From: Clostridia bacterium
GTDB taxonomy: Bacteria; Bacillota; Clostridia; Christensenellales; Aristaeellaceae
Assembly (NCBI GenBank): GCA_036834245.1
Contig: DAITOE010000001.1
Location: 1 to 44,864, forward strand
DNA length: 44,864 nucleotides
Reading direction: 5' to 3'
The notes under the pieces are model-generated. The model had not been told where the DNA came from. It saw nothing but the letters and a program-made list of their open reading frames with translations, and did no database searches. Made by a program: the position numbers and the translations under genes. This document shows positions 1,627-32,837 of the stretch, piece by piece (within the stretch, counting starts at the first letter, position 1; each line of letters begins with the position of its first letter).

Positions 1627-1628
1627 TC

Positions 1629-3607: not shown

Positions 3608-3608
3608 C

Positions 3609-4754: not shown

Positions 4755-4841
4755 GGCGGCCCCGCCCCCCTGTTTCCTGGCCGGGCGCCTGCTCACCCCG
4801 GTCAACCATAGATGGAACCAACAAAAAAAAGGAGGAACCCC

Positions 4842-6445: not shown

Positions 6446-6593
6446 CTTGAACCAAAACATTCCATCCTGACCACCTGCTCCCTGCCCCGTCGGGGGCAGG
6501 GGGCAGCAGAGGGCCTGACAGACCAGATTTCAGGAGTGTCAACCGCCAAAGTGACCGCAGTCACTTGGGCGATCCATAAAGGAAGGTGCCACC

Positions 6594-7544
6594 ATGAAAA
6601 CGCCCCAGGGCAACCTGCGTCCCGGCAAATCAACCCGGGCCTGGCGCTATTTGCACAACAACTGGCAGCTCTACCTCATGATGCTGCTGCCCCTCATATA
6701 TTTCCTGTTGTTCAAATATGTGCCCATGTTTGGCAACATCCTGGCCTTCCGCCGTTTCAAGCCCTTGACCGGCCCCTTCGGGGTGCGCTGGGAAGGCCTG
6801 CGCTATTTCAACCAGTTTTTGTCCCAGCCGGATTTCTGGCGCGCCTTCTCCAACACCCTCACCCTGGCGGCCCTCAACCTCATCATCAACTTTCCCATGC
6901 CCATCATCTTCGCCATCCTCTTAAACGAGCTGCGCTCCCTGCGCTTCAAGAAGCTGGTGCAGACGGTCAGCTATATGCCCCGCTTTGTGTCCACCGTGGT
7001 GGTCATCTCCATCCTGGGGGAACTGCTGTCCCCCTCCTCTGGCGCCTTGAACCGGCTCATCCAGCAGCTCACCGGGGCCAAGCCCGTCTTTTATATGAAT
7101 GAAGCTGCCTATTTCCGGCCCCTGTACATCCTCACCGACATGTGGCAGTACACGGGCTGGTCCGCCATCATTTACCTGGCGGCCATCACCGGCATCAACA
7201 ACGACCTGTTTGAGGCCGCCCGCATCGACGGCGCCAACCGGACACAGCTGATCCGCTACGTCACCCTGCCCACCATCCTGCCCACCATCATGGTGATGTT
7301 CATTTTACGGGTGGGGCACCTGCTGTCCCTGGGCTTTGAAAAAATCCTGCTGATGTATACCCCGGCCAATTCCATGGTGTCGGACATCATCGACACCTAT
7401 GTCTACCGGATGTCCGTGGCGGCCACAGCCCCCCAGTACAGCTACGCCACCGCCATCGGCCTCTTCTCCGGCATCATCGGCCTGGTGCTGGTCACCTCCA
7501 GCAACCTGCTCTCCCGCCGCCTCACCGGCGAGGGCATCTATTAA
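6594..7544 (+). CDS. ABC transporter permease, LplB-like (MalF-type, carbohydrate uptake)
   Basis: 316 aa. It has the N-terminal WQLYLMMLLPLIYFLLFKYVPMFGNILAFRRF signature of LplB-type permeases and an EAA loop (FEAARIDGANRTQLIRYVTLP). Confidence 0.85.
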   Translation: MKTPQGNLRPGKSTRAWRYLHNNWQLYLMMLLPLIYFLLFKYVPMFGNILAFRRFKPLTGPFGVRWEGLRYFNQFLSQPDFWRAFSNTLTLAALNLIINFPMPIIFAILLNELRSLRFKKLVQTVSYMPRFVSTVVVISILGELLSPSSGALNRLIQQLTGAKPVFYMNEAAYFRPLYILTDMWQYTGWSAIIYLAAITGINNDLFEAARIDGANRTQLIRYVTLPTILPTIMVMFILRVGHLLSLGFEKILLMYTPANSMVSDIIDTYVYRMSVAATAPQYSYATAIGLFSGIIGLVLVTSSNLLSRRLTGEGIY

Positions 7545-7554
7545 GGGGGCCGCC

Positions 7555-8427
7555 ATGAAAACACACGTCATCAAGGACAAAAGCCCCATCCTGGACGTCT
7601 TCATCTGGATCACCATGATCCTGGTGCTCCTGGCCTGCGTGACGCCCTTCCTGTACATCATCGCCATGTCCTTCTCCTCCTCCCGGGCCATCCTCAACAA
7701 CCGGGTCTCCCTCTGGCCCGTGGGCTTCAATGTGGATGCCTACCGCCAGGTCTTCGCCTACCCCAATTTTTTCAAGGCCTACGGGCACACCCTGTTTTAC
7801 ACCTTTTTCGGCACCCTGATTGCCCTGGTGATGATGGTGCTCTTCGCCTACCCCCTGAGCAAAAAACGCCTGAAGGGCCAGCCCATCGTGATGAAGCTGG
7901 TGGTCTTTTCCATGTTCTTCGGCGGCGGCCTGGTGCCCAACTACCTGCTGATTTCCTCCCTGCGCCTGGTGAACACCGTCTATGCCATCCTGCTGCCCTT
8001 TGCCATCAACCAGTTCAACCTCATCATCCTCATCAATTTTATCCGCTCTATCCCCGAGGAACTGGAGGAAGCCGCCCGCATCGACGGCCTCAACTATTTC
8101 GGCATCCTGATCAAAATCATCGTGCCTCTGCTCACCGCCGCCCTGGCCACCGTGGGCCTCTACACCGCCGTCTTCTTCTGGAACGACTGGTTCTACGCCC
8201 TCATCTACCTGCGCAGCCCCCAGTACCCCGTCATGCTGCTGCTGCGCAACATCGTCAACGGCACCACCATGGTGGGGGAGGCCGGCGGCGTGGGGGAGAA
8301 GGCCTCCGTGGCCATCGCCATCAAGTCCTCCGTCATCATCTCCTCCACCCTGCCCATCATCCTGCTGTATCCCTTCCTGCAGAAGTATTTCGTCAAGGGC
8401 ATGCTGGTGGGGGCTGTGAAAGGATAG
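7555..8427 (+). CDS. ABC transporter permease, LplC-like (MalG-type, carbohydrate uptake)
   Basis: The internal ATG at 7555 (MKTHVIKDKSPILDVFIWI) lies 10 nt after the upstream stop. The sequence upstream in the track ORF is Pro/Ser/Ala-rich junk. The EAA loop is EEAARIDGLNYFGILIKIIVP. Confidence 0.85.
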   Translation: MKTHVIKDKSPILDVFIWITMILVLLACVTPFLYIIAMSFSSSRAILNNRVSLWPVGFNVDAYRQVFAYPNFFKAYGHTLFYTFFGTLIALVMMVLFAYPLSKKRLKGQPIVMKLVVFSMFFGGGLVPNYLLISSLRLVNTVYAILLPFAINQFNLIILINFIRSIPEELEEAARIDGLNYFGILIKIIVPLLTAALATVGLYTAVFFWNDWFYALIYLRSPQYPVMLLLRNIVNGTTMVGEAGGVGEKASVAIAIKSSVIISSTLPIILLYPFLQKYFVKGMLVGAVKG

Positions 8428-16689: not shown

Positions 16690-16718
16690 TTGACAAACAA
16701 CGGAAATCCATCTATACT
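16690..16718 (+). promoter_or_regulatory. Candidate promoter for the 16804 binding-protein gene (TTGACA-17 nt-TATACT)
   Basis: A consensus -35, an exact 17-nt spacer and a near-consensus -10, about 85 nt upstream of the AGGAGG RBS and ATG at 16804. Confidence 0.5.
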
Positions 16719-16803
16719 TGCATCAACGGAAGCATGCTGTGTCATGTTTCAAGCAAACTGAATCCAAGCCCGGGATGGGCAAAATAAAAGGAGGATTTCT
16801 GGA

Positions 16804-18237
16804 ATGAAGAAACTCGTAACCCTGCTTGTGGCTTTGTCGATGCTTTTGGGCATCATGGGCCTGGCAAGCGCCGAGGAAGCTGCCTACGACCTGGGCGGCA
16901 ACACCGTGAAGGTACGCCTGTGGGACAGCCCCAACCCCTACGCGGAAGACGTGTCCGAGGTGGACAAGGAAAAATGGCTGCCCATCTACGAGGGGCTCAA
17001 GGAAAAATACAACGTCAATTTTGAGTTCTACACCACCACCACCGAGTGGGGCGAGATGCCCAACGAATGGATCATGTCCGTGGCGTCCGGCACCCCCGCC
17101 TGGCACATCACCAACAACTTCTCCGTCATGTGGCTGCCCCAGATGGTGGCCAACAAGGCGGTGGCCGATGTGAAGGCAGGTGTGGACACCCTGGACATCC
17201 CCCAGGGCTTGAAGGAACTGGCGGTGTTCTCCGGCGTCACCGCCGGCTTCAACACCGGCTATCCCGGCACCGAGGTGCTCACCTTCAACCGCAAGATGAT
17301 CAAGGATGCGGGCATGGAGTATGACCCGGGCGAGATGTTCAAGATGGGCAAGTGGAGCTATGACGACTTCTATGCCTACATGACCGAATTGCAGAGCAAG
17401 CTGCCCGAAGACACCTATGCCTTCTTCATCGACCCCTACTACTGGGCCATCTTTGCACCTCCCGGCAACAACACCATGATGGTCAACACCGACTTCACCG
17501 TCAACATGGCCACCGACCCCTACATCGAGTCCTTTGAAGCCCTGAAGAAGCTCTTCGATGCCAAGGTGGTCCGTCCCGCCAACACCAACGACGCCGGCGA
17601 CCCCGACTACTGGGGCACCCCCGCCGCCACCTTTGACCAGGGCGTGGAAGTGGCCATGACCCACCGGGCCATGTGGCAGGTGGGCACCCTGAACTCGAAC
17701 CAGCTGGACTGGGGCATCGTGCCCTATCCCTGGGGCAGCAGCGTGAAGCTGGGCACCGAGGGCGACTACACCACCCTGTCTGAGGAATACCACACCGCCT
17801 ACTACGACATGGGCGTCATGGGCGTGATGCTGGAAGGCGTAGAGAAGGACTTCCCCGGCCTGGAGAAGGACTATGTCATCAAGGCCCTCACCAACCTGAC
17901 CTATGACCTGTTTGTGGACGACGAGGCCAAGGAGCGCCTGGCCAAGGAAGCGGCCGAGCCCGCCCAGGACGATGAGGAGATCGACATCGGCTCCTTCCAG
18001 GACGAGCTCTCTGCCGAGCTGTATGCCTGGATGAACAAGCGCGTCCTCTTCAACCCCCTGCCTGCCATCGGCGGCCTGAACCTGTGGGTGTCCTCCTCCT
18101 TTGACGAGGAGCGCCAGGTGGGCATGGGCGGCATCAACCGCATCATCTACGACAAGAACCTCCCCATCCGCGCCACCTTCGAGGCGGCCGCTGTGGAGCT
18201 GGAGACTGCCTTTAAGGATGCAGGCTTCCTGAAATAA
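16804..18237 (+). CDS. Extracellular solute-binding protein (carbohydrate ABC, family 1-like), monocistronic
   Basis: 477 aa with an AAAGGAGG RBS and signal peptide MKKLVTLLVALSMLLGIMGLASAEE. It has its own promoter and terminator. Confidence 0.7.
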   Translation: MKKLVTLLVALSMLLGIMGLASAEEAAYDLGGNTVKVRLWDSPNPYAEDVSEVDKEKWLPIYEGLKEKYNVNFEFYTTTTEWGEMPNEWIMSVASGTPAWHITNNFSVMWLPQMVANKAVADVKAGVDTLDIPQGLKELAVFSGVTAGFNTGYPGTEVLTFNRKMIKDAGMEYDPGEMFKMGKWSYDDFYAYMTELQSKLPEDTYAFFIDPYYWAIFAPPGNNTMMVNTDFTVNMATDPYIESFEALKKLFDAKVVRPANTNDAGDPDYWGTPAATFDQGVEVAMTHRAMWQVGTLNSNQLDWGIVPYPWGSSVKLGTEGDYTTLSEEYHTAYYDMGVMGVMLEGVEKDFPGLEKDYVIKALTNLTYDLFVDDEAKERLAKEAAEPAQDDEEIDIGSFQDELSAELYAWMNKRVLFNPLPAIGGLNLWVSSSFDEERQVGMGGINRIIYDKNLPIRATFEAAAVELETAFKDAGFLK

Positions 18238-18263
18238 TTCAACACACCAAACCAACAAGGGGG

Positions 18264-18285
18264 GGCTGCCGCTGCTGCGGCAGCC
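18264..18285 (+). terminator. Intrinsic terminator after the 16804 gene (GGCTGCCGC-tgct-GCGGCAGCC then TCCTTTTG)
   Basis: A perfect 9-bp GC-rich stem followed by a T-rich tract, 27 nt after the stop codon. Confidence 0.65.
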
Positions 18286-18503
18286 TCCTTTTGCTGTACC
18301 CGCCGGGTGTTTGACTGGCAAAAAAACGGGGATATACCAAGAATTGGAGGCTGCGGAAGCAGCTGTAACAGGGGCTGCAGGCGGGGGGCGCGGCCTTGCG
18401 CCACCGGGTCAAATCTGTTACAATTCAAACAATTCACAACGAAAACCCATGCTGTGTCTGGCGGACTCTGTCCGCTCCTTGACTGTATGATCTGGGGTAA
18501 CAC

Positions 18504-21389
18504 ATGAAGAGATTGCTGCTATTGTTCATAGCCCTGTGCCTGGTCTGCGGGTGTGTCACCGCGCTTGCCCAGAGCAAAACGGTGCCCCCCTACCGGGACA
18601 CCCTGTTCCGCTTTGCGGAACTGCCCCGCAACCAGCCGGAGGTCACCATCGCCGCCAGGGACTACCTGGATGCTGACATGGCGGACCTGAAAGTGCTGGC
18701 GGATGGCAGCCTGTTTACCGGGGATGCGGGCCAGGTGGATTTCCTGGTGGAGGTGCCGGAAACCGCCCTGTACACCATCCACGTCACCTACCAGCCGGTG
18801 CCCAGCATGGGGGGCGACATCCAGCGGGCCATCCTCATCAACGGAAGCCTGCCCTTCTCTGAGGCCGGGGAAATCGTCTTCTCCCGCCAGTGGGGGGACA
18901 TCAGCCAGGACTATAAGCAGGTGGCGGGCAACCAGCCCTTCCCCTCCCAGGTGGAAACCCCCGCCTTTGCCACCGTCCCCCTGAAGGACGCCATGGGCTA
19001 CGAGGTGGAGCCCCTGCTGTTCCGCTTTGAACAGGGCAGCAACATCCTGTCCTTCAAGTCCCTGCGCCAGGCCATGCTCATCCGCGACATCACTTTGGGC
19101 CAGGCCCGGCAGCTGCCGGACTACGACACCTACCTGCAGGGCCACCTGGAAGCAGGCGCCCGGGAATATGCCGGGGCGCCGGTGAAAATCCAGGCGGAGG
19201 ATGCCATTCTCAAATCCAGCCCCAGCTTCTACCCCGTCAACGACCGCACCTCCCCCCTGACGGAGCCCTACCACCCCAGCTACATCGTCCTCAACACCAT
19301 CGGCGGCACCGCCTGGAACGAGCCGGGGGAGTGGATCACCTGGGAGGTGGAAGTGCCGGAGGACGGCCTCTACCGCATTGTCACCCGCTTCAGCCAGTCG
19401 GAGATGCGGGGCCTGTACGCCGCCCGGCAGCTGTCCATCAACGGGGAGATTCCCTTCAAAGAGGCGGCGGACCTGCGCTTTTACCACGGCACGGGCTTTC
19501 AGCTGCAGCCCCTGGGGGCCCACCGGGCCGACCCCGCCCGGGCGGAGGACACCGCGGCCTATTGGTTTTATTTCACAAAGGGCACCCACCGGCTGACCCT
19601 GGAAATGTCCCTGGGGGAATTGGGCCAGGTGCTTAGGAAACTGGAGCAGGTCATCGGCCAGCTCAACAGCCTCTACCGCCAGATTGTGTCCATCACCGGC
19701 TCCGTGCCCGATGTCTACCGGGACTACCTGCTCTACACCCGGGTGCCCGGCCTGGCCCGGCAGACGGAGGAGCGCCTCATCGACCTGCGCGCCCTGAAGG
19801 ACGAGCTGCTGGCCCTCACCGGCCAGAGCAGCGAATACACCGCCGGCCTCACCCGCCTCATCGCCACCATGGAGGCCTTTGACAACGACAGCGAGGAGGT
19901 GGTGAAGCGGCTTTCCCCCATGAAGGAGTCCATCTCCGCCGTGGGCAAGGCCCTGCTGGACATGAAAAACCAGCCCCTGAAACTGGACTACCTCCTCCTG
20001 GCCGGGGAGGACCTGGGGGGCGCCCGGGCGGAAGGGAATGTCCTGGAGAAAGCCCTGCACACCGTCCTGTCCTTTGCCGGCTCCTTCAGCAATGATTATT
20101 CCGTGGCCGGGGCCCTCACCGAAGACACCAGCAAGGAGCTGGAGGTGTGGCTGTCCACCGGCCGGGACCAGTACGACGTCATCCGCCGGCTGGTGAACGA
20201 GTCCTATGAAAACCAGTACGGCACCAAGGTGAACATCAAATTGATCAGCCCGGATGTGATGCTGCCCAGCATCATGACCGGCCGGGGCCCGGACCTCACC
20301 ATCCAGATTGCCAACACCGCGCCGGTGAACTTCGCCTTCCGGGGCGCCGCCCTGGACCTGACGGAGTTCCCGGATTATGAGGAGGTGGCTGCCGCCTTCC
20401 TCCCCGCCGCCATGACCTCCTTCCTCTACCAGGACGGGGTCTATGCCCTGCCGGACCAGATGTCCTTCCCGGTGATGTACTACCGCAGCGACATCCTGGA
20501 TGCCCTGGGCCTTGACATCCCCGAAACCTGGGAGGACCTGGTGGCCCTGATCCCCCAGTTGCAGCGCAACAACATGGAGATCTACCTGGACACCGCCCCC
20601 CCGGCCAGCCTGGGCACCGCGGTGTCCATGGGCAGCGGCAAGCCGGTGAACACCATCTTCCTCTCCCGCCTGTTCCAGACCGGGGGGGAACTGTATCAGC
20701 CGGACGGCCGCGCCAGCGACCTGAACACCGCAGCAGCCTACGAGGCCTTCAAGTTCTGGACCCAGTTCTACACCCAGCACGGCTTCCCCCTGGAGATGGA
20801 CTTCGTCACCCGCTTCCGCATTGGCGAGGTGCCCCTGGGCATTGTGGATTTGTCCACCTACACCCGCCTGGCGGTGTCGGCACCGGAGATCAAGGGGGCC
20901 TGGAGCATCGCCCAGGTGCCCGGCACCCGGGATGAAGAAGGCCGCCTGGTCCGGGCGGTGCCCGCGGTGACCGGCGCCTGCATGATCGTCAAAAACAGCG
21001 TGGAAGCCCGGGACCGCAAGCAGGAGGCCTGGGACTTCCTCAAGTGGTGGACCAGCGCCCAGACCCAATTGCACTATGCCCGGGAGATGGAAACCGTCCT
21101 GGGCCAGGCCGGCCGCTACCTGGTGGCCAACCTGCAGGCCTTTGACACCGTGGCCTGGCCGCCCCAGGTGACCCCGGTTTTGAAAGCCACCCTGCCCACT
21201 TTGAGGGGCATCCCCCAGGTGCCCGGGGGCTATATCACCGGGCGCTACCTGGACAACGCCTTTGTCACCGTCATCACCAAGTATGAAAACACCTCTGACA
21301 CCCTGTATGACATGACCCGGCTGATTGACGAGGAAATTGCCGCCAAGCGGGCGGAGTTCCATCTGGATGAGGAAGGGGTGAAGAAATGA
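18504..21389 (+). CDS. Giant (961 aa) secreted protein: two tandem CBM-like beta-sandwich modules + helical linker + C-terminal ABC solute-binding domain
   Basis: The signal peptide is MKRLLLLFIALCLVCGCVTALAQS. There is an internal duplication (FLVEVPETALYTIHV..RAILINGSLPFSEAGEI versus WEVEVPEDGLYRIVT..RQLSINGEIPFKEAADL). The C-terminal about 420 aa look like SBP family 1 (KELEVWLSTGRDQYDVIRRLVNESYENQYGTKVNIKL). Confidence 0.75.
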   Translation: MKRLLLLFIALCLVCGCVTALAQSKTVPPYRDTLFRFAELPRNQPEVTIAARDYLDADMADLKVLADGSLFTGDAGQVDFLVEVPETALYTIHVTYQPVPSMGGDIQRAILINGSLPFSEAGEIVFSRQWGDISQDYKQVAGNQPFPSQVETPAFATVPLKDAMGYEVEPLLFRFEQGSNILSFKSLRQAMLIRDITLGQARQLPDYDTYLQGHLEAGAREYAGAPVKIQAEDAILKSSPSFYPVNDRTSPLTEPYHPSYIVLNTIGGTAWNEPGEWITWEVEVPEDGLYRIVTRFSQSEMRGLYAARQLSINGEIPFKEAADLRFYHGTGFQLQPLGAHRADPARAEDTAAYWFYFTKGTHRLTLEMSLGELGQVLRKLEQVIGQLNSLYRQIVSITGSVPDVYRDYLLYTRVPGLARQTEERLIDLRALKDELLALTGQSSEYTAGLTRLIATMEAFDNDSEEVVKRLSPMKESISAVGKALLDMKNQPLKLDYLLLAGEDLGGARAEGNVLEKALHTVLSFAGSFSNDYSVAGALTEDTSKELEVWLSTGRDQYDVIRRLVNESYENQYGTKVNIKLISPDVMLPSIMTGRGPDLTIQIANTAPVNFAFRGAALDLTEFPDYEEVAAAFLPAAMTSFLYQDGVYALPDQMSFPVMYYRSDILDALGLDIPETWEDLVALIPQLQRNNMEIYLDTAPPASLGTAVSMGSGKPVNTIFLSRLFQTGGELYQPDGRASDLNTAAAYEAFKFWTQFYTQHGFPLEMDFVTRFRIGEVPLGIVDLSTYTRLAVSAPEIKGAWSIAQVPGTRDEEGRLVRAVPAVTGACMIVKNSVEARDRKQEAWDFLKWWTSAQTQLHYAREMETVLGQAGRYLVANLQAFDTVAWPPQVTPVLKATLPTLRGIPQVPGGYITGRYLDNAFVTVITKYENTSDTLYDMTRLIDEEIAAKRAEFHLDEEGVKK

Positions 21390-22327
21390 GCCAGCGCGTC
21401 ATGAAGCGCCCGGCGCCCGCCGGCATCACCCGGTGGCAGTACCAGCGCCAGGTGATGAGAAAATCCCGCCAATTGTACCTGATGCTGACGCCCTACATGC
21501 TGTTTTTTGGACTGTTCACGGTGATCCCGGTGTTCATGTCCATCTATTACAGCTTCACCCGGTTTGACCTCCTGCAGCCGGCGCAGTTTGTGGGCTTCTC
21601 CAACTACATGCGCCTCTTCCTGGACGACCCCATCTTCCTAAAGGCCGTCCAGAACACCTTCATCCTGGCCATGATCATCGGCCCCTTCGGCTATATCTTC
21701 TCCTTCCTCATGGCCTGGCTCATCAACGAGCTGCCGGCCAAGTTAAGGGCGGTGTTGACGGTGATCTTCTACGCCCCCTCCATCTCCGGCAATGCCTATA
21801 TGATTTTCGCCATGCTCTTTTCCGGGGATGCCTACGGCTATATCAACGCCTACCTCCTCAACTGGGGCATCATCACCGGGCCCATCCTCTTCCTCAGGGA
21901 TGAGCGCTACATGATGCTCATCGTCATCCTGGTGTCCCTGTGGATGAGCCTGGGTGTGGGCTTCCTGTCCTTCATCGCAGGCCTTCAGGGGGTGGATAAG
22001 GCCCAGTACGAGGCGGCGGAGATTGACGGCATCAAAAACCGCTGGCAGGAATTGTGGTACATCACCCTGCCCAACATGCGGCCCCAGCTGCTCTTTGGCG
22101 CGGTGATGGCGGTGACGGGCTCCCTGTCGGTGGCGGATGTCACCGTGGCCCTAAACGGCTTCCCCTCCACCAACTACGCCACCCACACCATCATCAACCA
22201 CCTAAACGACTACGGGGTCATCCGCCTGGAGATGGGCTACGCCTGCGCCATTGCGGTGCTGCTGTTCTTCATCATGCTGGGGCTGAACCAGCTGATCCAG
22301 CGGCTGCTCAGAAAGGTGGGCACCTGA
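21386..22327 (+). CDS. Carbohydrate ABC transporter permease (MalF-like), pair 1
   Basis: 313 aa with an ATGA overlap with the upstream stop. It is multi-TM and its EAA loop is YEAAEIDGIKNRWQELWYITLPNMRP. Confidence 0.85.
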   Translation: MSQRVMKRPAPAGITRWQYQRQVMRKSRQLYLMLTPYMLFFGLFTVIPVFMSIYYSFTRFDLLQPAQFVGFSNYMRLFLDDPIFLKAVQNTFILAMIIGPFGYIFSFLMAWLINELPAKLRAVLTVIFYAPSISGNAYMIFAMLFSGDAYGYINAYLLNWGIITGPILFLRDERYMMLIVILVSLWMSLGVGFLSFIAGLQGVDKAQYEAAEIDGIKNRWQELWYITLPNMRPQLLFGAVMAVTGSLSVADVTVALNGFPSTNYATHTIINHLNDYGVIRLEMGYACAIAVLLFFIMLGLNQLIQRLLRKVGT

Positions 22328-23277
22328 TGGACAGAAAGCTGACCCGCAAGGAGCGCCAGTTCCAGAAAATGCTGGCGGCCACCCAGCAAAAACCTAAACG
22401 GCTGCCCAGAACGGCCCTGGGCCGCTTCCTCACCAGCCACAAGTCCAACCGCTCGGTGGGGGGCAGCCTCACCCTGCTGGCCTTCCTCTTCGCCTTTGCC
22501 CTGTTGAGCCTCTTCCCGGTGGTGTTCATGGTGTCAAACGCCTTCAAGCCCTTAAACGAGCTGTTCATCTTCCCGCCCAAGCTCTTTGTGATGCAGCCCA
22601 CCACCGCCAATTTTTCGGACCTCTTTGGCCTCTTGGCCAATTCCCTGGTGCCCTTCCTGCGGTATTTGTTCAACACCCTCTTCATCGTTGTGCTGGGCAG
22701 CGTGGGCCATGTGCTGCTGTCCTCCATGGCGGCCTTCCCCCTGGCCAAGTTCAACTTCCCCGGGGTGAAGCTCTTAAACCGCATGATCCTGCTGGCCCTG
22801 ATGTTTAGTACCGCTGTCACCGCGGTGCCCAACTTCATGATGCTCAGCTGGCTGCGGCTCATCGACACCTACTGGGCGGTGATCCTGCCCTCCCTGGCCC
22901 TGTCCGTGGGCCTCTTCCTGATGAAAAACTTCATGGAGCAGGTGCCCGACGCCCTGATTGACGCCGCCAGCATCGACGGCTGCAGCTATTTCACCATGCT
23001 GTGGAAGATTGTGATGCCGGCGGTGAAGCCCGCCTGGATCACCCTGTTCATCATCTCCTTCCAGGGCCTCTGGGGGGCCACCGGCGGCAGCTTCCTGTAC
23101 AAGGAAAACATCAAGCCCCTCTCCGCCATGCTGGGGCAGATTGCCGGCGGCGGCGTGGGCCGCACCGGTGTGGTGGCCGCCATCAGTCTGATGATGTTCA
23201 TGGTGCCCGTCACCATCTTCATCATCTCCCAGAGCAACGTGCTGGAAACCATGACCACTTCCGGCATCAAGGAATAA
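22327..23277 (+). CDS. Carbohydrate ABC transporter permease (MalG-like), pair 1, with about 50-aa basic N-terminal tail
   Basis: The start MDRKLTRKERQFQK at 22327 overlaps the upstream TGA (TGATG). The EAA loop is IDAASIDGCSYFTMLWKIVMPAVKP. The track ORF extension (22054-22326) is an overlap artefact. Confidence 0.85.
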   Translation: MDRKLTRKERQFQKMLAATQQKPKRLPRTALGRFLTSHKSNRSVGGSLTLLAFLFAFALLSLFPVVFMVSNAFKPLNELFIFPPKLFVMQPTTANFSDLFGLLANSLVPFLRYLFNTLFIVVLGSVGHVLLSSMAAFPLAKFNFPGVKLLNRMILLALMFSTAVTAVPNFMMLSWLRLIDTYWAVILPSLALSVGLFLMKNFMEQVPDALIDAASIDGCSYFTMLWKIVMPAVKPAWITLFIISFQGLWGATGGSFLYKENIKPLSAMLGQIAGGGVGRTGVVAAISLMMFMVPVTIFIISQSNVLETMTTSGIKE

Positions 23278-23289
23278 GGGGGTGACGGC

Positions 23290-24732
23290 ATGAAAAAAAG
23301 AACCTGGCTCCTCATGGTCTGCGCCCTGTTGCTGATAGCCAGCCTGCAGGCAACAGCTGAGCAGGGCAGCGCCAACTACCTGTATTCCCCCCACAAGGAG
23401 CTGCTGCCCGTGCCCCCGGCCTATGTGTGGGAGCGCTCCTTAACCGCCAGCCGCCTGCCCGGGGTGGACAACCTGGCCAATCTCAGTGACGCCACGGTGA
23501 AGGACGGCAGAATCTACGTCCTCTGCCAGGACAAGCTGCTGGTCTTTGACGAGGACTTTGGCCTCATCTCCCTGGTCCTGGCCTACCAGGAAGAGGGGGA
23601 GAGCCAGATGCTCGCCGGCTGCACCGGGCTGTTTGTGAACCCGGATGACAGCCTCTACATCACCCAGGCCGAGCAGGCCCGGATCTTGCACTTAAACCCG
23701 GACTTCACCCTGAAACGGGTGCTGGAGCGGCCCCGGATTGACGGCTTTGAAAACGTCAACTACCGCCCCACCAAGCTGGTGGCGGACGAGGCCGGCCGCC
23801 TGTACGTGGTGGCCAAGGGCATGTACGAGGGCATCGTGGAACTGCAGCAGGACGGCAGCTTCTCCCGCTTTTACGGGGTCAACGAGGTGCGCTTCAACGC
23901 GGCGGACCTGCTCTGGCGCCGCCTGGCCACCAAGGAGCAGCGGGCCCGGCAGCAGCTGTGGCTGCCCACGGACTTCACCAACGTGGCCATCGACAAGGAC
24001 GGCTTCATCTTCGCCACCATTATGGAATCCCGGGGCCAGCTGATCAAGCGCCTAAACGCCAAGGGGCAGAACATCCTGCGCACCGGCGCCCAGGTGGACT
24101 ACCCCGGCGGGGACATGCGGGTGAACCAGGCCGGCTACGGCATCCCCACCGGCCCCTCCCAGTTCATTGCGGTGGACGTCAACGACTACGGCGTCTTCAT
24201 CCTGCTGGACAGCACCAGAAGCCGCCTCTTCGCCTACAACGAGGACGGCAGGCTGCTGTACACCCTGGGGGGCCAGGGGGACAGGCGGGGCTATTTCCGC
24301 AGCCCTGTGGACGTGGACTTCCTGGGGGACCGCATCGTGGTGCTGGACCAATTGGCCCAGTCCATCGAGATTTTTGCCCCCACCGACTACGGCCGGGCCC
24401 TGAACCTGGCGGTGGCGCACCAGCACTTCAACCGCTTTGAAGAGGCGGCGGAGGCCTGGCGGGTAGCCCTCGGGTACAACCACAACCTCACCCTGGCCTA
24501 TTCCGGCATCGGCCGCTCCCTGCTGCGGGAGGGCAAATACGAGGAGGCCCTGAACTACCTCCAGCGGGGGGACGACCGGGAGTATTACTCCAAGGCCTAC
24601 GCCCAGGTGCGCAACGACTACCTGAAAACCCATTTTGACATCATCGTCCTGGGGCTCCTGGCGGTGATCATCCTGCCCCTGGTGGCAGTGAAGCTGCTGC
24701 GCCGCAGGTCGCGCAAGGAGGTGCAGGCATGA
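23290..24732 (+). CDS. Membrane-anchored extracytoplasmic protein: signal peptide, about 6-bladed NHL-like beta-propeller, TPR-like helical region, C-terminal TM anchor
   Basis: The signal peptide is MKKRTWLLMVCALLLIASLQATA. Six blade-like repeats are visible (DGRIYVLCQDKLLVFD, DSLYITQAEQARILHLN, AGRLYVVAKGMYEGIVEL, DGFIFATIMESRGQLIKRL, YGVFILLDSTRSRLFAYN, GDRIVVLDQLAQSIEIFA). Helical repeats include EEAAEAWRVALGYN and GKYEEALNYLQRG. The anchor is IIVLGLLAVIILPLVAVKLLRRRSRK. Confidence 0.6.
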   Translation: MKKRTWLLMVCALLLIASLQATAEQGSANYLYSPHKELLPVPPAYVWERSLTASRLPGVDNLANLSDATVKDGRIYVLCQDKLLVFDEDFGLISLVLAYQEEGESQMLAGCTGLFVNPDDSLYITQAEQARILHLNPDFTLKRVLERPRIDGFENVNYRPTKLVADEAGRLYVVAKGMYEGIVELQQDGSFSRFYGVNEVRFNAADLLWRRLATKEQRARQQLWLPTDFTNVAIDKDGFIFATIMESRGQLIKRLNAKGQNILRTGAQVDYPGGDMRVNQAGYGIPTGPSQFIAVDVNDYGVFILLDSTRSRLFAYNEDGRLLYTLGGQGDRRGYFRSPVDVDFLGDRIVVLDQLAQSIEIFAPTDYGRALNLAVAHQHFNRFEEAAEAWRVALGYNHNLTLAYSGIGRSLLREGKYEEALNYLQRGDDREYYSKAYAQVRNDYLKTHFDIIVLGLLAVIILPLVAVKLLRRRSRKEVQA

Positions 24733-25382
24733 CCAGTTTTGCAAAAAGCGGGACCCGTTTTGTGGACACCTTCTGGCGCTTCCCCTTCAGCATCCTGGGC
24801 AGGCCCTTCAAGGGCTTTGACGAGATGAAATGGGGGGGCAAGGGCCGGTACAGCTTTGCCATCTTCGTCCTGGTCTTTGCCTGCCTGCTGTCGGTGGCCG
24901 AGTTTGTCTACACGGGCTTTCTCATCAACACCGGCAACCCCTACCTGTTCAACTCCCTCTTCCTGGCCCTGGGCACCGCCTTCCCGGTGATGCTGTTTGT
25001 CACCGCCAACTGGTCCATCACCACCCTGCTGGACGGCAAGGGCCGCTACGGCGAAATCTTCCAGGCCACCATGTACGCCATGTTCCCCATGACCATCCTG
25101 CGCCTGCTGGCCCTGATTTTAAGCCGGGTGCTGACCCTGGAGGAAATGACGGTGGTCACCACCCTGCGCACCCTGGGTGGGGTCATCTTCTTCCTCTACC
25201 TCTTCATCGCCCTGGTGGTGGTGCACGAGTACACCTTCGGCAAGGCCCTGGGCAGCCTGCTGCTCACCGTGGCCAGCATGATGGTGATCACTTTCGTATT
25301 GATGCTGTTCTTCGCCCTGGTGGCGGATGTGGCGGATTTCTTCCGCATCATCACCAAGGAAATCATCTTCAAGTATTTTTAG
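24729..25382 (+). CDS. Yip1-family integral membrane protein (about 5 TM)
   Basis: 217 aa with an ATGA overlap with the upstream gene. It has five hydrophobic segments. The FDEMKWGGKG...SFAIFVLVFACLL and ANWSITTLLDGKGRYGEIFQATMYAMFP pattern is typical of bacterial Yip1-domain proteins. The family call is from memory. Confidence 0.6.
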   Translation: MTSFAKSGTRFVDTFWRFPFSILGRPFKGFDEMKWGGKGRYSFAIFVLVFACLLSVAEFVYTGFLINTGNPYLFNSLFLALGTAFPVMLFVTANWSITTLLDGKGRYGEIFQATMYAMFPMTILRLLALILSRVLTLEEMTVVTTLRTLGGVIFFLYLFIALVVVHEYTFGKALGSLLLTVASMMVITFVLMLFFALVADVADFFRIITKEIIFKYF

Positions 25383-25396
25383 AAAGGGGTGTCCGC

Positions 25397-27859
25397 ATGA
25401 AAAAAATCTTCTGTCTCCTGTTGCTTGTGGCACTCCTGATGCCGGGCCTGCCCCCCGCCGGGGCCAGCGGCCTGGCCCCTGAGGGCTTCACCCTGATGGC
25501 GGAAAACGAGGCGCTGGCCCTGTACCTGCGGGAAAAGGACATGCTTTTGCAGGTGACCCACAAGGCCACCGGACGGTTCATCCAGTCCAGCCTCATGGGC
25601 GGCCAGCAGGGCAACCAGGTGGTGAAGAACCTGCAAAAATCCATGTTCAACGTCACCTTCATCGTCAACGCCAAAAGCGGCACCGTCTCCGCCATGGACA
25701 GCCATTCCATGGGGGTGATGATGGGGGGCGTCACGGCAGAGCAGACGGCAGGCGGCCTGCGCCTCCATTTCACCGTGGGGGACACCAAGCTGACGGAGGA
25801 CGACCTGCCCAAGATGATCCCCCTGGAGAAATACAACGCGCTGCTCAAGCCCCATTTCAGCGAGAAAAACGACAAAACCTTCCGGGGCACCTATGTCCTG
25901 GTGGGGGGCAACCAGTGGATCCGGTCCAAGGATCAGGGCATGGGGGCCCTGGCCATCAAGCAGCTGTATGCCCTGCTGTTTGAAACCGGCCAGTACACCC
26001 AGGAGGACCTGATTGAAGACAACCTGGCCTTCGGCCACGAGCGCGCCGTCTTCAACCCCCGCTTGTCCCTGGCCCTGGATTTCCGCCTGGACGGGGATGA
26101 CCTGCTGGTCTCCCTGCCCCTTGACAGCGTGGAAACCACCCCGGACAACCACCTGACCGTGGTGGAAATCCTGCCCTATTTCCTCTCCGCCACCCGGGAG
26201 GACAGCGGCTATTTCCTGGTGCCCGACGGCCCCGGGGGGCTGATTCCCTTCAACTCCGGCAACACCACGGCCCTGTCCTATCTGGACCAGGTCTACGGGC
26301 CGGACCCATTGAAGAACATCAACCGCTACCAGAGCCCCCGGTCCCGGATTCAACTGCCGGTCCTGGGCATGAAGAAAAACGGCCTCTCCGCCCTGGCCAT
26401 CATCGAGGAAGGGGCCGAGATGGCAGAATTGTTCGCCGACATCTCCGGCCGGGCGGACGAGTTCAACCGGGCCAGCATCCGCTTTGTGCTGCGGGACATC
26501 GAGGCGGTCTCCCTGCTGGGCAACCAGTCCATCACCGTGCCCCGCTTCAGCGACGACGTGTACACCGGCAGCTTCCGGGTGCGTTACAAGCTCTTCTTTG
26601 AAGAGGATTTCGGCTATGTGGAGATGGCCAGGGCCTATCAGGACTACCTGATCAAGCGGGGGATGCTGACATCATCCGCCCCCCTGGAGACGGCCCCCGT
26701 CTTCATCGAAACCCTGGGTGCCTTTTCCAAACAGAAGTTCTTCCTGGGCATCCCCTACCGCTCCACCGTCACCGCGGGCAGCCTGCCCCAGATCAAAAGC
26801 ATCTACGAGGCCTTGAAAGCAAAGGGCCTGGGCAGGATCCACCTGTCGGTCTACGGCCTGCTGGAAGGGGGCATGAAGCATTATTCCCTCAGCAGCCTGA
26901 AGCTGGACCCCAACATGGGGGGGCTTGCGGAATGGAACCGGCTGCGGGACGCGGTGACCGCCGGGGGGGACGAGATCCTGCCCAGCGTCTACATGAACAC
27001 CGTCTACGGGCGCAAGCGCTTCAACTACTACCAGGACGCTGCCAGGCTCCACAACGGGGACGCGGCCAGCGTCATGGTGATGCAGGAAAGCACCATGCTG
27101 CCGGCCCTGATGCCCTACCAGAGCTATTACCTCTCCCCCCACAGCCTGAAGGACTATGTGGAAAAGGCGGCCCAGTCCCTGTCGGGCCTGTCGCCCTCGG
27201 CCCTCCATGTCAGGGACCTGGGCTTCAGCCTGGTGCCGGACTATGCCAGGCGCAAGAACATCTCCAGGGTGCATGCCAGGCCCGGCTACCAGGAAGCCCT
27301 CAAGGAGCTGGCGGCCAGTTTTCCCCTGGCCCTCAGCCGCCCCAATGACTATGCCTTCCCGCATGCCACCTACGCCATGAACCTGCCCACCTCGGGCAAC
27401 GGCTTCAAGGTGGTGGAGACGGCGGTGCCCTTCCTGCCCCTGGTGCTGGAGGGTTGCCTGCCAGGGGCGGTGAGCCCCATGAACCTGGCCGCCCACCAGA
27501 ACCCCGGGGTGCTGCTGCTTCACGCCATGGAGGCCCGGCTCTTCCCGGCCTTCACCTTAAGCCATGCCCCGGAAACCGTCTTCCACGACACCCAGGACAA
27601 GGAGTTCATGAGCTTTTTCACCACCCAGTATGAGGGCCAGCTGGACCGGATTGCCGACATCAGCCAGCAGTATGAGGCCTTCTACCAGCAGGTGAAAGGC
27701 GCCCGCACCCTCTCCCACGAGGTGGTGAACCAGCAGGTGCGCCGCATCCGCTACGACAACGGGATGACCCTGCTCATCAACTACGGCAGCGCACCCTATC
27801 TGAGCCCTGAAGGCACCGTGGAAGGCGGTTTCTACCTTCTGACAGGAGGCCAGCAATGA
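25397..27859 (+). CDS. Secreted 820-aa protein of unknown function, DUF5696-like (possible cryptic glycan-active enzyme)
   Basis: The internal ATG at 25397 (MKKIFCLLLLVALLMPGLPPAGASG signal peptide) lies 14 nt after the Yip1 stop. The motif LPYFLSATREDSGYFLVPDGPGGLIPFNSG resembles what I recall for DUF5696 proteins, which I could not verify. The track ORF extension (24830-25396) overlaps the Yip1 gene out of frame. Confidence 0.55.
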   Translation: MKKIFCLLLLVALLMPGLPPAGASGLAPEGFTLMAENEALALYLREKDMLLQVTHKATGRFIQSSLMGGQQGNQVVKNLQKSMFNVTFIVNAKSGTVSAMDSHSMGVMMGGVTAEQTAGGLRLHFTVGDTKLTEDDLPKMIPLEKYNALLKPHFSEKNDKTFRGTYVLVGGNQWIRSKDQGMGALAIKQLYALLFETGQYTQEDLIEDNLAFGHERAVFNPRLSLALDFRLDGDDLLVSLPLDSVETTPDNHLTVVEILPYFLSATREDSGYFLVPDGPGGLIPFNSGNTTALSYLDQVYGPDPLKNINRYQSPRSRIQLPVLGMKKNGLSALAIIEEGAEMAELFADISGRADEFNRASIRFVLRDIEAVSLLGNQSITVPRFSDDVYTGSFRVRYKLFFEEDFGYVEMARAYQDYLIKRGMLTSSAPLETAPVFIETLGAFSKQKFFLGIPYRSTVTAGSLPQIKSIYEALKAKGLGRIHLSVYGLLEGGMKHYSLSSLKLDPNMGGLAEWNRLRDAVTAGGDEILPSVYMNTVYGRKRFNYYQDAARLHNGDAASVMVMQESTMLPALMPYQSYYLSPHSLKDYVEKAAQSLSGLSPSALHVRDLGFSLVPDYARRKNISRVHARPGYQEALKELAASFPLALSRPNDYAFPHATYAMNLPTSGNGFKVVETAVPFLPLVLEGCLPGAVSPMNLAAHQNPGVLLLHAMEARLFPAFTLSHAPETVFHDTQDKEFMSFFTTQYEGQLDRIADISQQYEAFYQQVKGARTLSHEVVNQQVRRIRYDNGMTLLINYGSAPYLSPEGTVEGGFYLLTGGQQ

Positions 27860-28773
27860 CTGCCCTGCGCAAACAAAACCCAAAAACCGGCTCCTGGTAC
27901 TACCGGCTGCCCTTCCCCAAGAAGATGGGGCTGTGGGGGATCATCTTCCTGATTCCCTGGCTCATCGGCTTCTTCGTCTTTTTCCTCTACCCCATGGTCC
28001 AGGTGGTACGCTACAGCTTCCACGACATGTCCATCATCCCGGAGTTGGAGCTCACCTTCACCGGCCTGGCCAACTACAACCAGGCCCTGCGGGTGGACCC
28101 CAACTACCTGCGGGCCATGGTGAACACCCTGGGGGAGGTGCTGCTGATGACCCCCCTGGTGGTGATCTTCTCCCTCTTGTGCGCCATTCTGCTCAACGGA
28201 AAGTTCCGGGGCCGGGCCATCGCCCGGGCGGTCTTCTTCATCCCCATCATCATGGCCACAGGCCTGATGCTGGACCGGGTCACCAACCTCTCTGCCCAGC
28301 TGGTCACCGCCGGCGCCCAGACCGCACCCTCCTTTGGCGCGGGCACCATTGCCGAGCTGCTGTTTTCCATCGGCATCGGCCGGGAGGCAGTCAGCTACCT
28401 CCTGCGCTCCGTCAACGACATCTTCAAGGTGGTGTCCCTCTCGGGCATCCAGATCTTGATCTTCCTCTCCGCCCTCCAGTCCATCAGCCCCTCCCTGTAT
28501 GAGGTGGCGAAGATTGAGGGGGCCACCGGCTATGAAACCTTCTGGAAGGTGACGGTGGTGATGGTGTCCCCCATGGTGCTCACCGTCAGCGTCTACACCC
28601 TGGCCGACCTCTTCCTGCGCTCCCCGGTGATCGAACTCACCTACGCGGTTGCCTTCAGGCGCTCCCAGTTCGGCCTGTCCGCCGCCATGAGCGTGCTGTA
28701 CCTGTTGATGTGCATCCTGGTGATCGGCATCGTCAGCTGGCTGATTAAAAAGGTGGTGTTCTATTATGACTGA
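27856..28773 (+). CDS. Carbohydrate ABC transporter permease (MalF-like), pair 2
   Basis: 305 aa with an ATGA overlap with the upstream stop. The EAA-like loop is YEVAKIEGATGYETFWKVTVVMVSP. Confidence 0.8.
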   Translation: MTALRKQNPKTGSWYYRLPFPKKMGLWGIIFLIPWLIGFFVFFLYPMVQVVRYSFHDMSIIPELELTFTGLANYNQALRVDPNYLRAMVNTLGEVLLMTPLVVIFSLLCAILLNGKFRGRAIARAVFFIPIIMATGLMLDRVTNLSAQLVTAGAQTAPSFGAGTIAELLFSIGIGREAVSYLLRSVNDIFKVVSLSGIQILIFLSALQSISPSLYEVAKIEGATGYETFWKVTVVMVSPMVLTVSVYTLADLFLRSPVIELTYAVAFRRSQFGLSAAMSVLYLLMCILVIGIVSWLIKKVVFYYD

Positions 28774-29788
28774 CAAGGCCCTGCGCCTGACACGGAGCGC
28801 CCGGGACAAGCGGCACTTCAACAAGCCCCTGCTGCAAAAGAAGGCCAAGGGCCTGCTGGTGAGCGTGCTGCGCTTCGCCCTGATTGTGTGCCTCAGCTAC
28901 CTGATCCTGGCCCCCATTTTGCGGAACCTCACCCAGGCCTTCACCCACCCGGACGACCTGGGCATGGCCACCAGCATCTGGCTGCCCCAGCGCATCTCCA
29001 CCCAGAACTGGCATGTGTCCCTATTAATGCTGGACTACTGGAAGGCCCTGCCCTACACCTTTTTGCACACCAGCATCATGGTGCTGCTGCAAACCCTGTG
29101 CGCCATGCTGGCGGGCTATTCCTTCGCCCGGTTCAAGTTCCGCTTCCGGGGGCTGCTGTTCGCCTTTGTGGTGTTCACCATCATCGTGCCGCCCCAGGTG
29201 TTCATGATGCCCCAGTACCTCTTCTTCCGGAAGTTTGACATCTTCGGCATCATCACCCTGATTACCGGCAAGCCCCTGAACCTGCTCAACAGCAGCATGT
29301 CCCTGTATGTGATGAGCGCAGTGGGCATGGGGATCAAAAGCGGGCTGTACATCTACATCTTCCGACAGACCTTCAGGAGCCTGCCCCGGGAATTGGAGGA
29401 GGCCGCCTACATCGACGGCGCCGGCTTCCTGCGCACCTTCACCTCCATTGTGGTGCCGGCAGCCAAGGCGGGCATCCTGACGGTGGTGGTGTTGAGCTTT
29501 GTGTGGAACTGGAACGACTCCTACTACACCAACCTCTTTGACAACAACAACGTGCGCCACCTGATGCTGGCCTACGGCAAGGCGGTGGCCTCGGTGGACG
29601 AGGCCCTGGCCAGCATCTCCAGCAAAGTGCCGGCAGGCTACTCCTTCCTCACCAAGAACCCGGTCTATGAGGGCGCCATCGCCAAGACGGCCAGCATGCT
29701 GGTCTTCCTGCCCCTGGTCTTCCTCTACCTCTTTGTCCAGCGCCGCTTCGTCCAGGGGGTGGAGCGCTCCGGCATCGCAGGGGACTGA
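28766..29788 (+). CDS. Carbohydrate ABC transporter permease (MalG-like), pair 2, with basic N-terminal tail
   Basis: 340 aa with an 8-nt overlap with the upstream gene. The EAA loop is EEAAYIDGAGFLRTFTSIVVPAAKA. Confidence 0.8.
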   Translation: MTDKALRLTRSARDKRHFNKPLLQKKAKGLLVSVLRFALIVCLSYLILAPILRNLTQAFTHPDDLGMATSIWLPQRISTQNWHVSLLMLDYWKALPYTFLHTSIMVLLQTLCAMLAGYSFARFKFRFRGLLFAFVVFTIIVPPQVFMMPQYLFFRKFDIFGIITLITGKPLNLLNSSMSLYVMSAVGMGIKSGLYIYIFRQTFRSLPRELEEAAYIDGAGFLRTFTSIVVPAAKAGILTVVVLSFVWNWNDSYYTNLFDNNNVRHLMLAYGKAVASVDEALASISSKVPAGYSFLTKNPVYEGAIAKTASMLVFLPLVFLYLFVQRRFVQGVERSGIAGD

Positions 29789-29795
29789 TTCATTT

Positions 29796-29839
29796 ATCCT
29801 GAACGCAAGCGTCAGTTTGTTGATGCTTGCGTTCAGGAT
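29796..29839 (+). terminator. Strong intrinsic terminator closing the 18504-29788 operon (15-bp stem ATCCTGAACGCAAGC / GCTTGCGTTCAGGAT, then TGCTATTTTCT)
   Basis: A perfect 15-bp inverted repeat with a 14-nt loop and a T-rich tail, beginning 8 nt after the stop codon. Confidence 0.75.
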
Positions 29840-31560: not shown

Positions 31561-31682
31561 TCCGGGTTCCTCCTTATCGGGGTTTGGTATACCAGGTATG
31601 GGTGTCGCCCATATCATACCACCGCCGCCATGGTTTCCACCAGCCGGATTGACGGGATTTGCCTGTTTCATCGCCAATTTTC

Positions 31683-31711
31683 TTGAATAAAGGCCCTTTT
31701 GGTGGTATACT
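31683..31711 (+). promoter_or_regulatory. Candidate promoter for the BMP-type ABC operon (TTGAAT-17 nt-TATACT)
   Basis: Hexamers with an exact 17-nt spacer. It is followed by a small 5' UTR hairpin (AGAAAC-tgt-GTTTCT) and the AGGAGG RBS. Confidence 0.45.
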
Positions 31712-31763
31712 ACCTGTACTTAGAAACTGTGTTTCTACAGCGAATAATAAGGAGGAACCATTC

Positions 31764-32837
31764 ATGAGGAAACTTTTGGCCCTTGTTCTGATCCTGGCGC
31801 TGGCGCTGCCGCTGGTGTCCCTGGCTCAGGAAACCTACGAGATTGCCATGGTCACCGACATTGGCACCATCGACGACAAGAGCTTCAACCAGGGCTCCTG
31901 GGAGGGCATTGTGGCCTTCGCCGAAGCCAATGGCAAGACCTACAACTACTACCAGCCTACGGCCCAGTCCACGGACATCTACCTGGACTTCATCGAGCAG
32001 GCAGTGAACGCGGGCGCCAAGGTCATCGTCACCCCCGGCTTCCTGTTTGAGGAGCCCATCTTCCGGGCCCAGGACATGTACCCGGAGGTCATGTTCGTGC
32101 TGATTGACGGCAACCCCAACGACGGCGACTGGAGCAAGCCGGAAGGCCCTGAGTTCCGCACCGAAGCCAATGCTGTGGGCATTGTCTTTGCGGAAGAGCA
32201 GGCGGGCTTCCTGGCCGGCTACGCTGCGGTGAAGGACGGCTACACCAAGCTGGGCTTCATGGGCGGCATGGCGGTTCCCGCGGTGGTGCGCTTTGGCTAC
32301 GGCTATGTGCAGGGCGCTGAAATGGCGGCTGCCGAACTGGGCATTGAAGGCCTGGTGATGAACTACCACTACACCGGCGGCTTCGCTGCCACCCCCGAGG
32401 CCCAGGCCCTGGCCGCATCCTGGTATGCGGACGGGATCGAGGTCATCTTTGCCTGCGGCGGCGCCGTGGGTGACTCCGTGATGGCGGCTGCGGAAGCGGC
32501 CGGCGCCAAGGTGATCGGCGTGGACGTGGACCAGAGCGCCCAGTCCGAGACCGTCATCACCTCTGCTGCCAAGGGCCTGGCCCCGGCGGTGGAGCAGACC
32601 CTGGCGGCCTACTATGCCGGCGAATTCCCCGGCGGCCAGGCCCTGGTGAAGGATGCCAAGGTGGACGGCGTGGAACTGCCCATGGCCAACTCCCGCTTCA
32701 ACACCTTCTCCCAGGCCGACTATGACGCCATCTTCGCCAAACTGGTGGCGGACGAGGTCAAGCTGCTGAAGGACACCGACATCACCAGCGTGGTGGAGAT
32801 TCCTGTGGAGCGCATGACCGTCACCGAGATCAAGTAA
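31764..32837 (+). CDS. BMP-family (PnrA/Med-like) ABC transporter substrate-binding protein, probably nucleoside/purine-type
   Basis: The start is MRKLLALVLILALALPLVSLAQ at 31764. The motif IAMVTDIGTIDDKSFNQGSWEG is characteristic of the basic membrane protein family. Confidence 0.85.
   Translation: MRKLLALVLILALALPLVSLAQETYEIAMVTDIGTIDDKSFNQGSWEGIVAFAEANGKTYNYYQPTAQSTDIYLDFIEQAVNAGAKVIVTPGFLFEEPIFRAQDMYPEVMFVLIDGNPNDGDWSKPEGPEFRTEANAVGIVFAEEQAGFLAGYAAVKDGYTKLGFMGGMAVPAVVRFGYGYVQGAEMAAAELGIEGLVMNYHYTGGFAATPEAQALAASWYADGIEVIFACGGAVGDSVMAAAEAAGAKVIGVDVDQSAQSETVITSAAKGLAPAVEQTLAAYYAGEFPGGQALVKDAKVDGVELPMANSRFNTFSQADYDAIFAKLVADEVKLLKDTDITSVVEIPVERMTVTEIK

Follow-up and report, generated by a model that had tools for sequence, protein, structure and literature searches.

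What do a Yip1-family membrane protein and a large exported protein of the DUF5696 family do side by side in a bacterial genome? The two genes are adjacent in a stretch of 44,864 nucleotides from a Clostridia bacterium (contig DAITOE010000001.1 of assembly GCA_036834245.1, hereafter called the window; G+C content around 62%). A sequence-only reading had described them as a pair, made of a glycanase of a new family and its membrane anchor or, failing that, of a new accessory module of ATP-binding cassette (ABC) importers. Its description of the genes holds: the coordinates, the Pfam matches and a scan for transmembrane (TM) segments agree on a 217-aa Yip1 protein with five TM segments (Y, 24729-25382, plus strand) and an 820-aa DUF5696 protein with a signal peptide (D, 25397-27859, plus strand). 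The stop codon of Y (25380-25382) is followed by a 14-nt spacer containing GAAAGGGG and then by the ATG of D at 25397. The unit is not a pair, as it had been described. It is a cassette of nine genes, and Y and D are probably the central genes of a twin sugar-importer operon with the order U-S-a-b-N-Y-D-c-d. Of the two earlier proposals, the accessory module of ABC importers is the one that best fits this synteny.

The evidence for the cassette comes from its recurrence. We collected homologues of D at 20-99% identity and found the same gene order in the first three contexts, which were from a Bacillota metagenome-assembled genome (MAG), Treponema phagedenis, and Paenibacillus eucommiae. A scan of species representatives provided 80 loci with 10-kb flanks, and hidden Markov models built from the window proteins were used to label the open reading frames (ORFs) of 83 loci. 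Y adjoins D in 81 of these 83 loci, and N, U, and S are present in 79, 73, and 70 of them. The dominant order is U S a b N Y D c d. In one variant U comes last (S a b N Y D c d U), and another lacks S-a-b and reads U [NY] D c d. One of the exceptions to the adjacency of Y and D is a locus cut by the end of a contig (L076). In an independent and evenly drawn sample of 401 genomes of the phylum, a strong match to D was found in 32 genomes (around 8%), all of which have Y beside D, and the 29 loci fetched from this sample all have Y-D-c-d. Over both sets of loci, this adjacency is found in 110 out of 112 cases.

The reciprocal search with the profile of Y identified the same genomes except one (G350). 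We rejected this genome as a case of D without Y, because a divergent fused N-Y was found to adjoin D on inspection. Its locus (L155:7774-14991) is unusual in having three extra ORFs (295, 415, and 408 aa) between D and c-d, and its fused N-Y is very divergent. Since the phylum sample and the reciprocal search agree, the co-occurrence of Y and D is essentially complete in both directions, which settles in the affirmative one of the checks proposed in the sequence-only reading. The cassette is found again in many genomes of Gram-positive bacteria and in some of spirochaetes, and an exhaustive search among 1.84 billion representatives revealed 3,888 clusters at 50% identity that are related to D. 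Five genomes of 2.2-3.0 Mb (G044, G054, G088, G172, and G236) have at least seven cassette-type Yip1 matches each, mostly in N-Y fusions of 700-770 aa; this many copies take up a large share of the coding capacity of such small genomes. We found no mention of DUF5696, of PF18952, or of its InterPro identifier in the searchable literature, and nothing relevant on Yip1 in combination with a transporter or a glycosidase. The cassette is a real, widespread, and apparently unstudied variant of ABC sugar-import loci.

In the window, the operon is on the plus strand and tightly packed (around 16690-29839), with overlaps between start and stop codons at five junctions (S/a, a/b, N/Y, D/c, and c/d). 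A promoter-like site (16690-16718, plus strand), TTGACA-17-TATACT, which agrees with the consensus at 11 of 12 positions and is a consensus match only, precedes U (16804-18237, plus strand). This gene has a strong ribosome-binding site and encodes a 477-aa exported family-1 sugar-binding protein, identified by profile comparison with the PDB, that is the second substrate-binding protein (SBP) of the cassette. A weak hairpin followed by a T-rich tail lies 3' of U (18271-18284, plus strand) and may be a partial terminator. The other binding protein, S (18504-21389, plus strand), has 961 aa, of which residues 559-860 hold an SBP_bac_1/8 domain; it also carries a helical bundle and two CBM35-like modules, as identified by Pfam and profiles. 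The permease genes a (21386-22327, plus strand) and b (22327-23277, plus strand) come next; the start of a overlaps the stop of S, and b, whose product has a basic N-terminal tail, shares 1 nt with the stop codon of a. N (23290-24732, plus strand) follows, and the start of Y overlaps its stop (ATGA). Downstream of D are two further permease genes, c (27856-28773, plus strand), whose start overlaps the stop of D, and d (28766-29788, plus strand), which overlaps c by 8 nt and also encodes a basic N-terminal tail. A strong terminator-like hairpin, with a 20-bp stem and a T-rich tail, closes the operon after d (29796-29839, plus strand). The first gene past it encodes a CE1-like esterase (PF00756).

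These genes have the features of CUT1-type importers, i.e., family-1 SBPs (S by Pfam, U by profile) and BPD_transp_1 permeases. The Pfam cut-off of BPD_transp_1 is passed by a, b, and d; the divergent c scores 25.9 bits against a cut-off of 26.4, and EAA-type loops are visible in the translations of all four. The operon thus encodes two CUT1-type translocators, a/b and c/d. Taken alone, U has no Pfam match. The profile of its homologues best matches the arabino-oligosaccharide SBP AbnE in the PDB (6rjy, E 1.3e-36), and many MalE-type SBPs as well. The N-terminal 550 residues of S hold the two CBM35-like modules and the helical bundle, and its profile matches the CBM35 modules of CITase (5x7g, E 1.3e-6) and CsxA (2vzp, E 0.009). 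There is no ATPase gene inside the operon. Matches to MalK/MsmX-like ATPases were found on other contigs of the genome, and the best MalK-like one (contig C112) is 42% identical over 315 aa to the ATPase encoded beside a Paenibacillus cassette. We also considered a role in export or cell-wall synthesis and rejected it, since all four permeases are TM domains of type-I importers with EAA loops and SBPs are present.

The closest partner of Y is encoded upstream. The 480-aa protein N starts with a signal peptide and combines an NHL propeller of six blades with a TPR region; a C-terminal TM helix (residues 451-469) and an RRRSRK tail complete it. Its profile matches the NHL propellers of Pizza6, PknD, and TRIM71 in the PDB with E-values from 1e-31 to 1e-18, and consensus TPR proteins at 1e-40. 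N and Y are fused in a single protein in around 20 of the 83 loci, e.g., as proteins of 672-696 aa in Treponema phagedenis and Paenibacillus eucommiae. N and Y form one unit, with fusions in many genomes. The membership of Y in the Yip1 family is given by Pfam (PF04893, E 4.6e-9, 36.8 bits for a gathering cut-off of 28.6), and its five TM segments by the hydropathy scan. The AlphaFold2 model of Y (mean predicted local distance difference test, pLDDT, of 93.6) has five long helices and two N-terminal ones, and Foldseek found no meaningful structural relative of it in the PDB (best E 1.9). Invariant polar residues are placed in or near the membrane: an N-W-x-x-T...G-x-G motif (N94, W95, and T98), E139, H166, and E211. 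The sole bacterial Yip1-family protein with a described role that we found in the searchable literature is YknW of the YknWXYZ system of Bacillus subtilis, an accessory membrane subunit that modulates the assembly of an ABC transporter (PMC4887032). By analogy with this subunit of an ABC exporter, Y could plausibly act as a scaffold.

The fold of D links the cassette to glycosidases. D matches the Pfam DUF5696 profile (PF18952) over residues 203-810 with 463.8 bits for a cut-off of 25.6 (E 1.2e-138). Its N-terminus has MKK, a hydrophobic run, and PGLPPAGA|SG, which make up a signal peptidase I-type signal, predicted to be cleaved at AGA|SG. An N-terminal hydrophobic segment is present in 110 of the 113 D proteins; members of the Paenibacillus type have a clear lipobox, and the others a TM-like anchor or, like the window copy, a cleavable-looking signal. 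The AlphaFold2 model, made with 38 homologues, has a pLDDT of 90.8 and a predicted TM-score of 0.87, and consists of a beta-sandwich, a (beta/alpha)8 barrel, and a second beta-sandwich. The sequence-only reading had recognised a rhythm of sandwich and barrel from four peptide motifs, all of which are in the translation of D, and the model bears it out. The resemblance to GH31 that it had drawn from this rhythm did not hold, as the nearest relatives are GH129 and GH101. In a Foldseek search of the PDB, the best matches are the GH129-like DagB (5opq, E 8e-30, TM-score 0.71) and the GH129 enzyme NagBb (5wzn, E 1e-24, TM-score 0.73), followed by GH101 enzymes (E 1e-15 to 1e-19) and then by GH36-type and GH13 enzymes. 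We are confident that D, which is exported, belongs to the GH129/GH101 structural superfamily.

At the level of sequence, this relation is distant. The search of the PDB with D as a single sequence found nothing, and only profiles reached GH129 (NagBb at E 6e-10, DagB at 5e-8). D has no match to the Pfam profile of GH129 (Glyco_hydro_129, PF11308), even at E<=10, which places it outside CAZy GH129 by sequence. The DUF5696 profile of Pfam also scores genuine GH129 proteins. Lipoprotein GH129 (PF11308) proteins of Bacilli (L118-L121 and others) carry weak or precomputed PF18952 matches in their C-terminal domain. Since these lipoproteins match both profiles, PF11308 and PF18952 overlap, and they probably belong to one Pfam clan. 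As the catalytic strands lay outside every HMMER alignment, we assembled an alignment of 22 GH129 sequences from genome matches and compared D with it using hhalign. This gave a probability of 81% over the barrel and the C-terminal domain.

The same alignment was used to place the candidate catalytic residues. In NagBb the acid/base is Glu478. In the alignment, D607 of D stands opposite the Asp that is invariant in the F-I-D-C-D motif, in the nucleophile region of GH129; D615-Y616 align with an invariant D-Y, and N650-D651 with the N-D of S-E-G-G-N-D. The invariant Glu of this last motif, the candidate acid/base of GH129, pairs with Ser647, such that D lacks the expected acid/base. Other positions are much more conserved among the 113 D proteins: D277, in a P-D-G-x-G motif (110), D303 (110), D674 (104, with Glu solely in the window copy), N696 (112), E712 (113), and H774 (108). 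Hence, the conserved acidic residues that had been sought as a sign of an enzyme do exist, with D277, D303, D674, and E712 nearly invariant, and the window copy keeps Asp607 together with the family acids D277, D303, E674, and E712. The nucleophiles of NagBb and DagB are Asp435 and Asp486, and this Asp is the only catalytic residue common to both; DagB requires in addition an Asp from its N-terminal domain and two other Glu residues (PMC5698469). Because DagB shares only the nucleophile with NagBb and uses other acids, the loss of the NagBb-type Glu does not alone exclude catalysis. D may well be a non-canonical glycosidase, at just short of an even chance; that it holds glycans without cleaving them is a substantial possibility, and some other role is rather unlikely. 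The earlier interpretation is supported in part. The fold is of the alpha-glycosidase type; a glycanase of a new family is unproven, given the Ser at the acid/base position, the variability of this position across the family, and the chemically unrelated glycans targeted by the enzymes beside the cassettes.

The source genome, a MAG of 1.95 Mb that is 84% complete, has three paralogous cassettes, whose D proteins are only around 25% identical. One is split between two contigs (C28:3762-13148 and C86:1-2168) and adjoins GH65, an extra SBP, GH5, and GH10-CBM4_9. The other (C13:6949-16811) has a fused N-Y of 677 aa and is followed by GH16, a 1061-aa protein without Pfam match, and genes of the 2-keto-3-deoxygluconate pathway (KDPG aldolase and a PfkB kinase). 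Co-localised glycoside hydrolases are thus found at both paralogous cassettes, as at most related loci, and not at the window copy. In 38 related loci, a variety of carbohydrate-active enzymes (CAZymes) are encoded downstream: GH43, GH10, beta-helix proteins, GH35, GH38, GH42, GH95, GH53, and GH26. In Treponema phagedenis, a PNGase-type N-glycanase (PF09112/PF09113; L003:11939-13171) is encoded directly 3' of the cassette, which hints at uptake of N-glycans by this copy. Upstream of the cassette, Paenibacillus loci carry a divergent gene for an AraC-type response regulator.

The pace of divergence gives further clues. Among 51 complete cassettes, the components rank from fastest to slowest as U, D, N, Y, S, c, d, a, and b. 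Since U and D diverge fastest, as expected of parts that contact the substrate, D evolves in the manner of a part that determines specificity. All components diverge together, with correlations of 0.96-0.99. The partial correlations single out U-d (0.56), S-b (0.54), and D-N (0.39); these pairs are not independent and provide a lead only. This pairing fits the mirror-image gene orders. N-Y-D is best read as a fixed accessory tied most closely to the c/d translocator.

Considering these results together, we think that N-Y-D is probably a glycan-engaging accessory of the twin CUT1-type importer. N-Y and D would form an extracytoplasmic complex on the c/d translocator. S would capture a polymer or a long oligosaccharide by its CBM35 modules, and D would engage the glycan chain in the pocket of its barrel. 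U would receive fragments for c/d, the SBP domain of S would receive them for a/b, and a shared MsmX-type ATPase would power the import. We propose only tentatively that N-Y-D represents a new class of ABC-importer accessory, tethered to the membrane, derived from a glycosidase fold and placed on c/d, which it would feed with the polymer-length glycans caught by S, perhaps trimming them processively.

Several observations weigh against this account. The position of the candidate nucleophile (607) is Asp in 80 of the 113 D proteins, and that of the acid/base (647) is Asp or Glu in 59 and Ser in the window copy; 43 proteins have acids of these kinds at both. The two other D paralogues of the genome look more degenerate at catalytic positions, where their alignment is less certain. 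GH129, GH101, GH36, and GH13-type enzymes act on alpha-linkages, although many cassettes adjoin enzymes for beta-xylan, beta-mannan, and beta-galactan. The operon of the window has no adjoining glycoside hydrolase, its sole neighbour being the esterase beyond the terminator. Finally, the only true exception to the adjacency of Y and D, a Treponema MAG (L009, 9977-12532), has D-c-d but lacks N, Y, S, a, and b in its surroundings. The genes upstream of D in this locus are housekeeping ones (a methyl-accepting chemotaxis protein, FliG, an M16 peptidase, and a SPOR protein).

Variable or lost equivalents of the nucleophile and the acid/base are what one would see if D were a pseudo-glycosidase, i.e., a non-catalytic glycan receptor derived from GH129 that holds or threads the substrate for c/d. 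In that case, the nearly invariant D277, D303, D674, E712, and N696 would form a site binding metal or hydroxyl groups; NagBb uses Ca2+ for sugar recognition (PMC8106489). Such a receptor would also suit cassettes that serve chemically unrelated glycans and a protein that diverges at the pace of binding proteins. Yet four acids, one Asn, and one His remain nearly invariant at around 25% identity, as they would if the catalytic apparatus had been relocated, and this superfamily is able to move its acid/base, as in DagB (PMC5698469). Many operons, including that of the window, also lack another exported depolymerase. We hold a purely receptor-like D to be possible and somewhat doubtful.

The other two accounts detach D from substrate delivery or from the transporters. 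The enzyme-anchor pair of the sequence-only reading, a new secreted glycanase with Yip1 as its dedicated membrane anchor and independent of the transporters, draws on the glycosidase-type fold and conserved acids of D, on the cleavable-looking signal of the window copy, which leaves it with no anchor of its own, and on a Y that is always adjacent. We consider it very improbable: the partner with which Y is fused or coupled is N and not D, no Y-D fusion was seen among the loci examined, members of the Paenibacillus type have a lipobox of their own on D, and the stop of D overlaps the start of c, with D-c-d as invariant as Y-D. We found no evidence that Yip1 anchors D; its fixed partner is the upstream NHL/TPR protein. 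It is unlikely, if less so, that N-Y-D is an assembly or regulatory module, akin to YknW or to a transceptor, which controls the assembly or activity of the two translocators or signals the presence of substrate. There is the precedent of YknW (PMC4887032), TPR and NHL are modules of protein interaction, some polar residues of Y within or close to the membrane are invariant, and the Paenibacillus loci have AraC-type response regulators upstream. These regulators are outside the conserved core, none of N, Y, and D has a cytoplasmic output domain, and the glycosidase fold and fast divergence of D point to contact with the substrate.

A few further features of the window and of its genome are worth reporting. 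The SBPs that we examined (window 4812-6365, 16804-18237, and 31659-32837; C86:2197-3606) have signals for signal peptidase I, such as ASA|EE and SLA|QE, with no lipobox Cys. We rejected a diderm envelope as the reason for the missing lipoboxes, since Omp85 and LpxC were not found in the 84%-complete MAG and since the genome encodes Lgt and LspA. A minus-strand gene immediately upstream of the operon (14095-16434), in a stretch of lower G+C content (0.56), encodes a protein of 778 aa whose C-terminus carries a type-I dockerin. Further upstream (751-8427), genes for an RpiR regulator, SIS-domain (MurQ-like) proteins, a protein with the beta-lactamase fold, AnmK, and another SBP look like an operon for the recycling of peptidoglycan sugars.

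The enzymes encoded next to the cassettes act on xylan, arabinan, mannan, galactan, pectin, and N-glycans. The function of N-Y-D, once known, would give a second functional context to bacterial Yip1 proteins and could explain the uptake of complex glycans by fibre-degrading Firmicutes of the gut, rumen, digester, and soil, and D could define a new family related to GH129, made of enzymes or of pseudo-enzymes. If N-Y-D is indeed a new class of importer accessory, bacteria with a single membrane would have a "selfish" Sus-like uptake machine made of unrelated parts. The polysaccharide utilisation loci (PULs) of the Sus-like type in Bacteroidota and those of Gram-positive bacteria do share the logic of the cassette: a glycan binder with carbohydrate-binding modules, a surface protein with a glycosidase fold, a dedicated importer, and many paralogous copies per genome beside varied CAZymes. 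The parts are unrelated to those of the Sus-like loci, with no SusC or SusD, and the likeness is one of analogy only.

The known systems closest to D are NagBb of Bifidobacterium bifidum (5WZN), an alpha-N-acetylgalactosaminidase, and DagB of Zobellia galactanivorans (5OPQ/8RZK), a 3,6-anhydro-D-galactosidase. They share with D the three-domain architecture and the local motifs D..DY and GGN(D/A)(F/Y)A, as well as the His of the C-terminal domain. Unlike them, D is around 150-180 residues longer, has Ser647 in place of the acid/base Glu, lacks a match to PF11308, and is always part of an ABC-transporter cassette, with nearby enzymes that have no relation to GalNAc or carrageenan. The GH101 endo-alpha-N-acetylgalactosaminidases (EngBF, 2ZXQ; SpGH101, 5A55) also superpose on D in the barrel and in the sandwiches on either side of it, with much lower coverage (TM-scores of 0.28-0.44). 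These are large multi-domain cell-wall proteins, and no match to them was found at the level of sequence. For Y, the comparison is with YknWXYZ, where the exporter, YknYZ, is of the MacB type and has a membrane-fusion protein, whereas here the transporter is a type-I importer and the Yip1 protein is coupled to an NHL/TPR ectodomain. The transporter genes themselves resemble those of the AbnEFJ-type CUT1 importers of Firmicutes (TC 3.A.1.1), which share an orphan MsmX-type ATPase, in the SBPs U and S, in the permeases a-d with their EAA loops, and in the lack of an ATPase gene in the operon. They differ from them in that one operon encodes two translocators together with N, Y, and D, and in that one of the two SBPs carries CBM35-like modules and a helical bundle.

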